This document shows positions 5,287 through 10,531 of a DNA stretch of 13,094 nucleotides, in pieces. The notes beneath the pieces were generated by a model, which saw only the letters and a program-made list of their open reading frames with translations, did not search any database and was not told the origin of the DNA. The first letter of the stretch is position 1. Every line of letters begins with the position of its first letter. The stretch comes from a virus (taxonomy: Duplodnaviria > Heunggongvirae > Uroviricota > Caudoviricetes). Location of the stretch: the IMG/VR virus record IMGVR_UViG_2703718822_000001, positions 1 through 13,094 of that record, one strand, 5' to 3'. The position numbers and the translations under genes are program-made.

Positions 5287-6039
5287 TTACTTCGCCACAC
5301 TCAGATGGCTGACATTGGGACGCCAGCTTTCCCAGTTAAAACTCACCCAGCGACCACCGTTCATGGTCATCCGGTCCATAATCCTCTCACCAAGAAGCGT
5401 GCTCATTGCGGCATGATTCAGGTTTGTCAGCATCCCGACACTGCGCAGTGATGCCGTCCGGCGATCAACAATCTGGTGCAGTACCACCTGCTCGTTTTTC
5501 GTCTCACGCTGGATGCCAATTTCGTCAAGAACCAGGAGGTCCACTTCGCACAGTTCACGCAAAAATTTTTCCCCTGACAGCCCGTCATCGTAGCTGGCAT
5601 GTAACGCGCTCATCACATCCGCCACAGTGACCACTATCACGGATTTACCGGCCTTCAGCAGACGATTACCCACAGCCGCCGCCAGATGATTTTTTCCGGT
5701 TCCCGGATTCCCGCTGAACACGAAGTTTGTATAACCGGTTATCATTTCCTCAGCGATGGATTTGGCCTGGCTCAGCGCATGTTTCTGCCCGTCGTTCCGC
5801 ACCTGGTAATTCGCGAACGAACATTTGCGGTGCAGCGGCTGGATGCCCGAACGGTTCAGGATTTTTTCCACCCGCAACTGACGATTCCGGCGGTTAATCT
5901 CCTCGCAGTATTTCCGGCCTTCGGCAAGTTGCCACTCGCGCCACTCCTCCGGCGTACAGTACGGCACGGTTGCGCGTTCAGAAGCCAGTCTGCGGATGCG
6001 TTCCAGAACACCAACTGCAACTGTCGCGATATCTTTCAT
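5287..6039 (-). CDS. DnaC/IstB-type AAA+ replicative helicase loader (lambda P analogue; YdaV-like)
   Basis: 250 aa. Walker [16 protein letters not shown] and Walker B-like DLLVLDEIG. Immediately downstream of the O-like initiator. Confidence 0.85.
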
Positions 6040-6045
6040 GGTCAG

Positions 6046-7014
6046 TTACCCCCTGAAACCCGGTGGAATTTCAGTGTCCGGTTCAGAAATATGATTCACG
6101 CAACTCTGCGCAGGCCCACGCCCAAGACGAATGACCAGTTCATCCCATTTTTCGCGCAGTTTTGCCGGACTCATGATATTTTTTACCCAGAACGGATCCC
6201 GCTGCACCCGACTGAACATTTCACAAATCTGCCGGTGACTGCGGCCATCCAGCATGCGCATCATCCGGACATCGTTAGCCCATGTCGTCCAGTTTGGCTC
6301 TCTGGGGCGAGAAACCTCACCATCATCACTGGCTGCGTGTTCATACAGCGCAACAACACGCCCCCAGATCCACTGCGCACAGGTAATATCATCACGGGTT
6401 CCCCACTGTCGCTTCGGCACATTCCACGTATGCGCATCAGGGTGTTTATCCAGAAAGCGTTCAACCGGAGATGATTTTTTTTCGTCCGGAAGTGAAACGT
6501 CCGGACAAGAAGATCTTTTATCTGACGGATCAAGTTTTAATACTGACGGATCGGGGTCAATCATCGCCCCCCTAATCGGCTGTTTTTTATCAATGGTTGA
6601 CCCCTCAGAATTTGACGGGTCAACCATTGAGGGGTCAATATTTGACGGGTCAACTGTTAACGGGTCATTTTTTGCCGGGCTAATTTTTCTTTTCGGTTTA
6701 TATGCCTCACGCGCCGCCGCTGCCGCTGCTTCGAGTTTTTCCACATTAAGCCGATAGATATTGCTTACGTTACGCCCACCGATCTTACGCTCTTCCTTCG
6801 TCAGCCAGCCCTCTTTCGCCAGTTCTGCAATCGCAGATTTCACGGTGGATTCACTTCTGGCACCGATCTGACGCCGGATCGTTTCCATAGCAGGCCATGA
6901 CACCCCCTCGTCATTGCTGTAATCTGCAAGACGGGCCATTACTGCCACCCTTGATAAGATCATGCCAGTGAAGGCGCATCCTTCCCAGACAAGACCATGA
7001 AGCTTGCTGCTCAT
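6046..7014 (-). CDS. replication initiator (lambda O analogue / YdaU-like) with origin embedded in its linker region
   Basis: ATG at 7012-7014 with GGGGG RBS 5 nt upstream (the ORF-track start at 7029 is a GTG). N-terminal winged-helix-like domain, central D/P/S-rich repetitive linker (DPLTVDPSNIDPSMVDPSNSEGSTID...) that is encoded by the iteron DNA, then a C-terminal domain. Confidence 0.8.
   Translation of the reverse strand: MSSKLHGLVWEGCAFTGMILSRVAVMARLADYSNDEGVSWPAMETIRRQIGARSESTVKSAIAELAKEGWLTKEERKIGGRNVSNIYRLNVEKLEAAAAAAREAYKPKRKISPAKNDPLTVDPSNIDPSMVDPSNSEGSTIDKKQPIRGAMIDPDPSVLKLDPSDKRSSCPDVSLPDEKKSSPVERFLDKHPDAHTWNVPKRQWGTRDDITCAQWIWGRVVALYEHAASDDGEVSRPREPNWTTWANDVRMMRMLDGRSHRQICEMFSRVQRDPFWVKNIMSPAKLREKWDELVIRLGRGPAQSCVNHISEPDTEIPPGFRG
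6550..6706. repeat. candidate replication origin: iterons plus AT-rich region inside the O-like gene
   Basis: At least four direct repeats of (T)TGACGGGTCAA-like units at about 15-bp spacing (6611-6667: tttgacgggtcaacc / attgaggggtcaata / tttgacgggtcaact / gttaacgggtca), with further copies at 6553-6560 (ggggtcaa) and inverted at 6597-6604 (ttgacccc). Flanked by AT-rich ttttttgccgggctaatttttcttttcggtttatat (6667-6706). Confidence 0.6.
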
Positions 7015-7036
7015 AAAACCCCCGAACACCGTGCTT

Positions 7037-7462
7037 TTAGTGCATCACCACAGCATTCCCTGCCGGGCCGCCGCGATTTATCTGGTCATACAAAACGACC
7101 GCTGACGCAACAAAATCGTCGACATCCTTCACCAGCCGATCCCGCCGTTCGACAATCTCCCGGTAGTACTCAGAACTGTGACTGCGCATACGGGCCACCA
7201 GCAAAGGCGGCATCGCCTTTTCGATCGCCGGTAACAGAGCCTGAATTTTTTCAACAGCATCAGGGGTGTCTTTATCCAGCCAACGGAAAATTTTCTGGGT
7301 ATTACGAGCCAGGGCCTCAGGATGAGTGTCGTCGTACAGTTCCGGGAACGTCATCCCCAGTTCGAAATAAGTCCGGGCTATTTCAGCTGCGGGAACTTTC
7401 TCACCGTCAGGATATGCCCAGGCATTCATCGCCATGCGGATGTGCTCATGCTTGATTTTCAT
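7037..7462 (-). CDS. ydaT: YdaT-family protein (proposed CII-like regulator in Rac-type immunity regions)
   Basis: 141 aa, starts MKIKHEHI and ends ...VVMH, matching my recollection of Rac YdaT (about 140 aa). ATG overlaps the Cro-like stop (ATGA at 7459-7462). Third gene position as in racR-ydaS-ydaT. Confidence 0.55.
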   Translation of the reverse strand: MKIKHEHIRMAMNAWAYPDGEKVPAAEIARTYFELGMTFPELYDDTHPEALARNTQKIFRWLDKDTPDAVEKIQALLPAIEKAMPPLLVARMRSHSSEYYREIVERRDRLVKDVDDFVASAVVLYDQINRGGPAGNAVVMH

Positions 7463-7713
7463 GAATCAACTCCCAACAGCTTTTTCGTAGTAGTTTTATT
7501 TCTGCCAATAGTTAAAATTGCATCGGCAGAAAATAATCCGTTTGATGCATGAGCGATTTTTTCAGCATAATTTGTTTCGCCGGTATATTCAGTGCGAGGC
7601 AATTTTCCGTTATCCATCCATTTGTAGATTGCTCTTTGGCTGACACCACAAACGTCGGCCACAACAGAAACGCGAACAGTTTTGATTACATCTTCAAGTG
7701 TTTTCTGGTTCAT
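7459..7713 (-). CDS. Cro-like HTH repressor (DicC/YdaS family)
   Basis: Start set at ATG 7711-7713 (MNQKTLEDVIK...), with GAGGGTG RBS 6 nt upstream. The ORF-track start at 7785 would leave only 8 bp before the divergent repressor gene. HTH segment VADVCGVSQRAIYKWMDNGKLP. Confidence 0.7.
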   Translation of the reverse strand: MNQKTLEDVIKTVRVSVVADVCGVSQRAIYKWMDNGKLPRTEYTGETNYAEKIAHASNGLFSADAILTIGRNKTTTKKLLGVDS

Positions 7714-7792
7714 ATCACCCTCACAATGTGAACTTTGAGTACACTCTATAACAGAACTGACAGTACATTCAAGAGCGAATATCATTGAACTT
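7714..7792. promoter_or_regulatory. divergent immunity promoter/operator region (PR/PRM analogue)
   Basis: 79-bp AT-rich gap between the divergent Cro-like and repressor starts. Repeated GTACA-core motifs: GAGTACACT (7737-7745) and AGTACATT (7760-7767). Confidence 0.6.
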
Positions 7793-8212
7793 ATGGTTCA
7801 TGAAGATAAAGCGCGTAAAGAGTTCGCCAGTAGGCTTGCGCTAGCCTGTGAAAACGCTGGTTATGAACAACATGGAAGGCAGGCAGAAATTGCCCGTCGA
7901 ATGAAATTAACACCAAAAGCGGTTAGCAAATGGTTTAATGGCGAAACAATTCCTCGCCGAGAGAAATTAAGGGAATTAGCAACACTCATTGGAACAACAC
8001 CAACCTATCTTTTGGGAGAGGATACAGAAGAAAGTGGACAGGTACGTTTCTATCAGGAGTTAAATCCAAGACAAAAAATCATCATTGATCTTCTGGACGA
8101 GCTCCCTGACAGTGAGACAGATGAACTTTTAAAAACTCTTGAGGAGAAAAAACAAAAGTACAATGCAATTTACGAAGAGTTAGCACGAAAGAAAAAACAA
8201 AAAGCCTCTTAA
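7793..8212 (+). CDS. dicA: DicA-like (RacR-like) XRE-family HTH immunity repressor without a peptidase S24 domain
   Basis: 139 aa. HTH region GRQAEIARRMKLTPKAVSKWFNGETIPRREKLRELATLIGTTPTYLLGED. C-terminal LNPRQKIIIDLLDELPDSETDELL... resembles the DicA C-terminus as I recall it. Divergent from the Cro-like gene and followed by ydfA/B/C-dicF-dicB as in Qin. Symbol is by synteny plus resemblance. Confidence 0.7.
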   Translation: MVHEDKARKEFASRLALACENAGYEQHGRQAEIARRMKLTPKAVSKWFNGETIPRREKLRELATLIGTTPTYLLGEDTEESGQVRFYQELNPRQKIIIDLLDELPDSETDELLKTLEEKKQKYNAIYEELARKKKQKAS

Positions 8213-9926: not shown

Positions 9927-9984
9927 TTCTGGTGACATTTGGCGGTATCAGTTTTACTCCGTGACTGCTCTGCCGCCCTTTTTT
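9927..9984 (+). ncRNA. dicF: DicF small RNA (ftsZ-targeting) with intrinsic terminator-like 3' end
   Basis: ttctggtgacatttggcggtatcagttttactccgtgactgctctgccgccc followed by a run of six T (9979-9984). This matches the E. coli DicF sequence as I recall it (UUUCUGGUGACGUUUGGCGGUAUCAGUUUUACUCCGUGACUGCUCUGCCGCCC) apart from about two substitutions near the 5' end. Lies 170 bp upstream of dicB as in Qin. Confidence 0.85.
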
Positions 9985-9987
9985 AAA

Positions 9988-10139
9988 AGTGAATTTTGTG
10001 ATGCGGTGAATGCGGCTCAGCGCACGCGGAACAGTTAAAACCAAAAACAGTGTTATGGGTGGATTCTCTGTATCCGGCGTTAATTGTTAACTGGTTAACG
10101 TCACCTGGAGGCACCAGGCACCGCATCACAAAATTCATT
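9988..10139. repeat. long inverted repeat (18-bp perfect core, about 21 bp extended) bracketing 110 bp between dicF and dicB
   Basis: 9991-10008 GAATTTTGTGATGCGGTG is the exact reverse complement of 10119-10136 CACCGCATCACAAAATTC; pairing extends to 9988/10139 with one G-T. The loop contains GTTAAC-TG-GTTAAC (10087-10100) and CCTGG-aggca-CCAGG (10104-10118). Confidence 0.5.
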
Positions 10140-10154
10140 GTTGAGGACGCGATA

Positions 10155-10343
10155 ATGGAAAAGTTATCATGTAATGCCAGCACGTCTGAACTTCGTTTCG
10201 AAATTGGCGTTATCACTGGAGACAAAACATTTATTGAAGACGCCATTAAGCAGAGAAAACTCGAGCAGGACCTGTTAAATGAAGTATGCATTCCTTCAAT
10301 GCTGGCTCGTCTGGACCTGCTGCAAAAAGGATATAAACAATGA
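10155..10343 (+). CDS. dicB: DicB cell-division inhibitor (MinC-dependent FtsZ antagonist)
   Basis: 62 aa: MEKLSCNASTSELRFEIGVITGDKTFIEDAIKQRKLEQDLLNEVCIPSMLARLDLLQKGYKQ. Closely parallels E. coli DicB as I recall it (same length; FEIGV...TEDAI..RK...LLN..CI.SMLARL). GAGGA RBS. Stop overlaps the ydfD-like ATG (ATGA). Confidence 0.85.
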   Translation: MEKLSCNASTSELRFEIGVITGDKTFIEDAIKQRKLEQDLLNEVCIPSMLARLDLLQKGYKQ

Positions 10344-10531
10344 ATACAACATTTGCACTCGTTCTGACAGTTTATCTTGTTTCCGGCGAATCTCTTGAGC
10401 TGGTGACTGGCTTATACGGTTCAATGAAAGAATGCATGGCTGCAGCAGCAGAACAAAAAATTCCCGGTAACTGTTATCCGGTAGATAAAACTACTCACAC
10501 TAATAATAACGAAATACCGGCAGGACTTTAA
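10340..10531 (+). CDS. ydfD: YdfD-like small protein with N-terminal hydrophobic segment (reported lysis-type protein in Qin)
   Basis: 63 aa, equal to the K-12 YdfD length, directly after dicB. N-terminal TFALVLTVYLVSG hydrophobic helix. Confidence 0.55.
   Translation: MNTTFALVLTVYLVSGESLELVTGLYGSMKECMAAAAEQKIPGNCYPVDKTTHTNNNEIPAGL

Follow-up and report, generated by a model that had tools for sequence, protein, structure and literature searches.

A palindromic array within an O-like initiator gene

The DNA analyzed here, called the window below, is a stretch of 13,094 nucleotides from IMG/VR virus record IMGVR_UViG_2703718822_000001, and corresponds to the early region of an E. coli lambdoid prophage, of the same kind as CP-933P, Rac and Qin. 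Its minus strand carries an O-like replication initiator gene (6046-7014, in an ORF of 6046-7029) encoding 322 amino acids from an ATG at 7014, and this gene contains the likely replication origin that is the subject of this work, an element spanning about 6505-6670 (approximately 170 bp, as judged from the sequence). The initiator matches PHROG 391, 'replication initiation O-like' (E 1e-104). Its AlphaFold model has two domains, a winged-helix one at the N-terminus (aa 1-105) and a helical one at the C-terminus (aa 183-297), and between them a stretch of pLDDT below 50 (aa 109-178). The DNA coding for the disordered linker (aa 109-178; 6481-6690, minus strand) holds the entire proposed origin.

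What kind of initiator does the gene encode? The C-domain is homologous to that of lambda O (BLASTP, 41% identity over aa 203-302, E 2e-24). In the N-domain, Pfam identifies HTH_36 at aa 25-71 (27.5 bits), together with a sub-threshold DnaD_N match, and a Foldseek search of the N-domain against the PDB returned dimeric winged-helix regulators of the MarR, PadR and ArsR types, with weak scores (E ~3e-3) that we used for the fold class only. The resemblance to dimeric regulators fits palindromic sites. A lambda O orthologue, which would carry an N-domain of the Phage_rep_O family, was ruled out because Pfam gives HTH_36 and because BLASTP aligns only the C-domain with lambda O. The initiator can be regarded as O-like in architecture and C-domain, yet not as an orthologue of lambda O. 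The preliminary description of this locus, made from the DNA alone, had spoken of an O-like coding sequence; this holds for the C-domain but not for the HTH_36 N-domain, and the gene lies on the minus strand.

Five palindromic sites occur with an exact 15-bp period at 6597-6668, and a degenerate sixth unit is present at 6672-6683. The units occupy 6657-6668, 6642-6653, 6627-6638, 6612-6623 and 6597-6608, and their plus-strand consensus is TTGAC-NN-GTCAA with a core of TGA-N4-TCA. On the plus strand they read TTGACGGGTCAA at 6612 and 6642, TTGAGGGGTCAA at 6627, TTGACCCCTCAG at 6597 and TTAACGGGTCAT at 6657, and a related site, CTGACGGATCAA, is found at 6522. Each unit is a TTGAC/GTCAA palindrome flanking an asymmetric 2-bp centre, which is inverted in the last unit (6597-6608). 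Tandem Repeats Finder detected periods of 15 bp (6611-6688; 5.2 copies, 71% match) and of 30 bp (6610-6679; 82%), repeat finding gave five copies exactly 15 bp apart from 6590 together with inverted repeats of 18-33 nt, and a search with TTGACNNGTCAA, allowing up to two mismatches, produced matches at 6597, 6612, 6627, 6642, 6657 and 6522. The exact core TGA-N4-TCA is present nine times in the 13-kb window, and five of these copies fall within the 130 bp of 6523-6652, where shuffled sequence would be expected to contain about 0.04 (4.3 for the window as a whole). The last two units form an extended inverted repeat with arms of 18 nt each (6590-6607 and 6613-6630, 94% complementary), and the hairpin of 6590-6630 accounts for most of the single-strand DNA folding signal of 6500-6690 (z = -3.5).

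Both the tandem repeats with 15-bp spacing and the inverted copies that the preliminary description had placed inside the O-like gene were thus recovered. Its interval of 6550-6706 does hold the array, but is too short, for related sites and the strongest DNA conservation extend to about 6505. Tandem-repeat and core-motif scans of the window revealed no other repeat cluster and no stronger origin candidate near the replication genes. On the minus strand this region codes for ...NDPLTVDPSNIDPSMVDPSNSEGSTI..., and the array for aa 116-140 of the linker, as the five-residue units NDPLT-VDPSN-IDPSM-VDPSN-SEGST. Close relatives of the gene (L010 and L018) are natural in-frame variants that lack one 15-bp unit.

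Constraint on the DNA beyond the encoded protein

Homologs were gathered from phage, virus-contig and genome collections; a megablast search with the initiator gene against the phage collection gave no match, and relatives were reached by tblastn. Where the window and PhiR29_2 agree in a residue, they also agree in its codon at 23 of 24 positions of the linker, but at 25 of 59 positions of the N-domain and 29 of 74 of the C-domain (Fisher p = 1.7e-7). The same pattern is seen in eight of nine lineages, in which the same-codon fraction at conserved residues is 0.79-0.93 for the linker and 0.33-0.56 for the folded domains (p <= 0.003 in each of the eight). The linker has the lower amino acid identity despite its higher same-codon use. 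Third-base identity is 0.62-0.68 at codons 121-150, is the highest in the gene at codons 151-170 (0.84-0.90), and ranges from 0.2 to 0.55 outside codons 121-170.

A logo of 22 units from five lineages shows which bases are held: T3 G4 A5 and T10 C11 A12 are near-invariant. Position 3 is the third base of a codon, and is T in 20 of the 22 units under eight different amino acids; serine is encoded by TCA in 19 of 21 units, and the third bases of the two intervening codons are free. The residues themselves vary from unit to unit (DPS, DAS, DGS, DTS, EGS and EPS). From these codon patterns, the constraint acts on the DNA and not on the protein alone. The low pLDDT of the linker supports the earlier proposal that a single stretch of DNA serves both as protein linker and as cis-acting site.

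Distribution, covariation and exchange of the module

Conservation of the iterons in related O-like genes was a check set in advance. The 15-bp TGA-N4-TCA array was found at the same place in homologs from eight genera, namely Escherichia, Shigella, Citrobacter, Salmonella, Edwardsiella, Morganella, Klebsiella and Yersinia. Carriers include PhiR29_2 and SfIV (58% amino acid identity), Klebsiella Kp4866-6, Yersinia YeP1, Stx2_KH16-043, and prophages of Citrobacter, Salmonella, Edwardsiella and Morganella; in the Salmonella and Edwardsiella homologs the exact sites recur every 30 bp.

The array covaries with the N-domain. The N-domain of the window's initiator is found on three unrelated C-domains (those of Kp4866-6, YeP1 and Stx2_KH16-043 are different) and keeps the array with each, and three types of N-domain on one type of C-domain carry three types of repeat at the same place. 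A scan of genome contigs returned five loci, all with other N-domains, which are uninformative on iteron conservation but informative on this covariation. The repeat type follows the N-domain, which is the DNA-binding domain, and not the C-domain.

In a sister family (L003-L006) that combines another N-domain with the same C-domain, GGTCAAAATG occurs five times at gene nt ~340-450, in all three frames (IGSK, SGQN and EVKM). Locus L007 has, at gene nt ~370-525, a 63-bp repeat containing CCGCAGAATCGCGG, followed by three CAGATCA motifs, each with a GATC, spaced 12-14 bp apart. There is also a mosaic junction at ~6490-6505 (gene strand ...TGT CCG GAC / GTT TCA), directly after the conserved linker. 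The window and an E. coli clade of 85% identity have near-identical DNA in the N-domain and linker and diverge sharply past this junction, where the other clade resembles PhiR29_2. Judging by such mosaics, the N-domain and the origin behave as a single exchangeable module.

The gene that accompanies the initiator varies too. It is DnaC-like in the window and lambda-P-like in Salmonella, Edwardsiella and Morganella, and in SfIV, PhiR29_2 and Citrobacter no phage-encoded loader adjoins the initiator, a PerC-like or YfdN-like gene being found instead. The loader partner is interchangeable in this initiator family. In Salmonella L097 and Edwardsiella L098, a TumE (PF20126)/HVO_A0114-type gene pair lies between the immunity genes and the initiator, and may be toxin-antitoxin or defence cargo.

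GATC sites and the unstable segment downstream of the array

Gene-downstream of the array are two further sites that read GATCCGTCA on the gene strand and contain a Dam (GATC) site: one at 6544-6552, and one at 6523-6531 (within TTGATCCGTCAG) that uses the same codons across six genera. Two or three copies of GATCCGTCA are present in eight of nine lineages. All 17 GATCCGTCA sites encode their aspartate as GAT, whereas 12 of the 15 array units use GAC (p = 2e-6).

These sites coincide with the candidate DNA-unwinding region at 6507-6546 (70% AT), where third-base identity reaches 0.84-0.90. No 40-mer of the initiator gene is less stable than this one, and its stability falls within the lowest 1.7% for all 40-mers in the window. 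The GATC sequences at 6512 (in AGATCT), 6528 and 6549 overlap this region and constitute the tightest GATC triple in the window. About 45-50 bp separate the region from the array. Lambda and all the homolog types examined likewise have the gene's least stable 40-mer just gene-downstream of the repeats. Within the region, GATCTTTTATCTG (6512-6524, plus strand) agrees at 9 of 11 specified positions with the oriC 13-mer consensus, GATCTnTTnTTTT; the agreement could be due to chance and is not used here. There is no consensus DnaA box near the array, only two 8/9 matches at 6446 and 6737, and these were not used as evidence either.

A different AT-rich stretch had been assigned to the origin in the preliminary description, and is probably not the unwinding element. 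Located gene-upstream of the array, this A-rich segment at 6664-6703 (68% AT) is more stable than 6507-6546 and is absent, as a 16-codon gap, from PhiR29_2 and SfIV, which retain the array; for these reasons it was rejected as the likely site of unwinding. The A-rich stretch is probably dispensable, and 6507-6546 is the likelier unwinding region.

Could the GATC sites have a regulatory role? One reading is that the GATCCGTCA sites are a Dam-methylation-sensitive class of initiator site, with opening or re-firing tied to methylation state through SeqA-type sequestration or methylation-dependent initiator binding, and that the 15/30-bp array is an architectural scaffold. This reading is suggested because the GATCCGTCA sites are the most constrained DNA in the gene across six genera and their aspartate codon is always GAT, but we regard it as speculative and rather unlikely. 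GATC sequences are found within the unwinding region of P1 oriR and of oriC. If the reading were true, Dam-sensitive sites would provide a layer of control that lambda ori lacks, and would bring the prophage origin nearer to oriC or P1 oriR.

Prophage setting

A DnaC/IstB-like helicase loader gene (5287-6039, minus strand) lies directly downstream of the initiator gene, with matches to PHROG 50, 'DnaC-like helicase loader' (E 1.5e-84), and to Pfam IstB_IS21 (E 3e-20) and Bac_DnaA. Past the loader, the minus strand carries DUF1627, DUF551, DUF968 and RusA genes. Gene-upstream of the initiator, and in the same orientation, are a cII/YdaT-like gene (7037-7462, minus strand; PHROG 163, 'CII-like transcriptional activator') and, beyond it, a cro/YdaS-like gene (ORF 7459-7785, minus strand); Pfam assigns YdaT_toxin and HTH_17 to this pair (7037-7785). 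A cI-like repressor gene on the plus strand (7793-8212) faces the minus-strand early genes. Since the cro- and cII-like genes are upstream and oriented like the initiator, rightward early transcription would read through the origin.

This gene order is also found in CP-933P (cf. PMC8630535), whose gene was termed an 'o' homologue by Jurenas et al. 2021; the origin is not discussed there (PMC8630535). A copy in E. coli OkiPb01678 shares 99.8% identity with the initiator gene of the window, and that of CP-933P in O157:H7 about 85%; the gene is present in 1587 of 5426 complete E. coli genomes (~29%). The K-12 Rac ydaU-ydaV module has the same neighbourhood as the window (racR/cI-like, ydaS, ydaT, initiator, DnaC-like ydaV and the DUF1627 gene ydaW). 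Identity with Rac oriJ was rejected, because YdaU of K-12 is a DUF1376 protein and belongs to a different initiator family.

Comparison with lambda ori and other origins

Lambda ori consists of four iterons and an AT-rich region in gene O. A lambda O dimer binds each dyad-symmetric iteron through its N-domain, and the resulting complex strains the adjacent AT-rich region; the C-domain of O binds P, and a flexible linker connects the two domains (PMC5043065, PMC7466680, PMC6022878). The element in the window resembles lambda ori, and also the origins of 434, 21, 933W and P27, in being located inside the initiator gene, in the segment that codes for the linker, and in having sites with internal dyad symmetry. 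The repeats occupy nearly equivalent positions, aa 117-145 of 299 in lambda and aa 116-140 of 322 in the window; with the homologous C-domain, this bears out the parallel to lambda ori drawn in the preliminary description. In both systems the DNA is least stable gene-downstream of the repeats, a helicase-loader gene follows the initiator, and the module stands behind cro- and cII-like genes. The in-frame variation in unit number within the window's family is reminiscent of the four iterons of lambda versus six in Stx phages (PMC7466680).

Clear differences can also be discerned. The N-domain is HTH_36 in the window and belongs to another family in lambda O, and the loader is DnaC-like in the window and P in lambda. 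The sites are of 10-12 bp on a 15-bp period, compared with 18-19 bp on a 20-24-bp period in lambda, and the least stable 40 bp has an AT content of 70% and lies about 50 bp from the array, whereas that of lambda is 80% AT and contiguous with the iterons. Unlike lambda ori, the AT-rich part of the element in the window contains two additional GATC-bearing sites.

The theta plasmid iteron origins (P1, F, RK2, pSC101 and R6K) likewise have repeated initiator sites beside an AT-rich, GATC-containing unwinding region, as is proposed for the window. However, plasmid iterons are direct repeats of 17-22 bp, placed about two helical turns apart outside the rep gene, that are bound by Rep monomers and accompanied by DnaA boxes. 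A plasmid-type iteron origin was ruled out because the sites in the window are palindromic, of 10-12 bp with a 15-bp period, and lie inside the gene, which has no consensus DnaA box near the array.

The closest relatives of the system are the initiators of the Shigella phages SfII/SfIV, of Escherichia phage PhiR29_2 and Kati, of Citrobacter phage phiNP, of the Klebsiella Kp48xx prophages and of the O157 prophage CP-933P, which have the same N-domain, the TGA-N4-TCA array and the GATCCGTCA pair. Initiators of these types are annotated as 'replication protein O', 'primosomal protein' or 'helix-turn-helix domain-containing protein', and in literature searches of incomplete coverage we found no paper mapping an origin in any of these groups. 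A sequence search of the PDB found no structure for either domain of the initiator, and its one match was a weak one between the C-terminal tail and DnaT: aa 300-322 (window 6046-6114), ...SEPDTEIPPGFRG, weakly match the last ~23 residues of E. coli DnaT (PDB 2ru8, 6aep and 9zbt; E 0.02-0.08). The (P/A/S)GFR(G/S) end of the tail is retained in homologs with a lambda-O-type C-domain and in Kp4866-6, irrespective of which loader gene comes next. The DnaT-like tail may account for the 'primosomal protein' annotations, and its sequence hints at a common docking motif for DnaB/DnaC.

Interpretation and alternative explanations

Taken together, the array, the constraint on its DNA, the covariation with the N-domain, the lambda-like position and C-domain, and the adjacent DnaC-like loader make it likely, in our judgement, that the element at ~6505-6670, embedded in the linker-coding part of the O-like gene, serves a lambdoid prophage of the CP-933P/SfIV type as its replication origin. 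By analogy with lambda, dimers of the N-terminal winged-helix domain would bind the palindromes, build a nucleoprotein complex and distort the DNA. This complex, aided by negative supercoiling and rightward transcription, would open the AT-rich, GATC-containing region at 6505-6550, and the lambda-O-like C-domain would then bring in the host DnaB by way of the neighbouring DnaC-like loader. The protein could tolerate the double duty of this DNA because the segment is an unstructured linker. We regard the proposed origin as a further example of the lambda-type class in which ori lies inside the initiator gene; the layout is already known from lambda, and no new principle is involved. In its main points the preliminary description of the feature is borne out. 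The proposed origin is a member of the class that, as far as our literature searches of incomplete coverage extend, was not mapped before.

Several observations weigh against this assignment. The pairwise codon tests all have the window as one partner and hence are not independent, and the Stx2_KH16-043 lineage has no GATCCGTCA sites and gives a codon test that is not significant (p = 0.2). The period equals five codons, so that the DNA repeat is always in one frame in the window's family, and the argument from frame-independence therefore comes from the sister family alone. The AT-rich region is weak, with 70% AT over 40 bp against 80% in lambda, and is some 45 bp away from the array. A 15-bp period corresponds to 1.4 helical turns, compared with the 20-24 bp of lambda, and might not allow adjacent sites to be occupied together. 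Finally, such prophages are often cryptic, neighbouring genes are frameshifted in L001 and L009, and the origin in this copy may be a relic.

Might the repeat instead be a matter of the protein alone, a low-complexity (D/E)-(P/A/G)-S-x-x linker grown by slippage, with the DNA repeat as a by-product that has no cis role? The period of exactly five codons in a constant frame, the predicted disorder of the segment, and the in-frame variation in unit number among L010 and L018, which slippage predicts, would all suit such an origin of the repeat. We nevertheless consider it very unlikely: the linker has lower amino acid identity yet far higher same-codon use than the folded domains, third positions are conserved beneath eight residues while the residues change, the sister family has its repeat in all three frames, and the repeat tracks the type of N-domain and not that of the C-domain. 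An explanation at the level of RNA or transcription, on either strand, is extremely improbable. An internal promoter could be imagined from the resemblance of TTGAC to a -35 hexamer, and an antisense RNA or structured mRNA from the fold of 6500-6690. However, apart from a terminator-like site at 6097-6112, a promoter and terminator scan of 6100-7500 is empty, Rfam gives no match in this region, the hairpin is composed of two adjacent palindromic units, and the conserved positions form a TGA/TCA dyad and not a -35/-10 pair.

More serious consideration is due to the possibility that the DNA is constrained, and perhaps bound by the initiator, for another purpose, with the true start of replication elsewhere. 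The sites could autoregulate the operon of O and loader, control copy number or cause exclusion through titration or handcuffing, or could be a conserved patch of homology for module exchange between initiator halves. The mosaic junction right after the conserved linker, the joining of the N-domain and linker to three types of C-domain, the weakness of the AT-rich element and the lack of a good DnaA box close by, beyond the two partial matches, agree with a role other than initiation. Yet a recombination patch could do without a periodic array of palindromes covarying with the DNA-binding domain, the element matches lambda ori in gene position, dyad-symmetric sites, downstream unstable segment and adjacent loader, and neither another repeat cluster nor a stronger candidate was seen near the replication genes. 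We therefore judge these other roles improbable, and a lambda-type origin remains the preferred reading.

A defined origin of ~170 bp with a clear consensus would help to build or to cure replicons of these prophages, whose module is carried by the O157 prophage CP-933P and by Shigella serotype-converting phages. The module would also allow one lambda-O-type C-domain to be studied with a DnaC-like loader, a lambda-P-like loader or no phage-encoded loader. Annotators may take strong conservation at synonymous sites, and repeats of 'DPS', in such genes as signs of a cis element, and the segment could be viewed as a natural example of DNA serving both as coding sequence and as protein-binding array.

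Other features of the window

Beyond the replication and immunity genes, the window encodes the DicF antisense RNA at 9927-9978 (plus strand; Rfam RF00039, 77 bits). With dicB (10050-10343) and a DUF1482 gene (10340-10531) it constitutes the cell-division-inhibition module typical of Qin/Rac-type prophages. A 54-bp tandem repeat in two copies (81% match) is present at 2301-2408, among ORFs (2167-2514) that have no family match.

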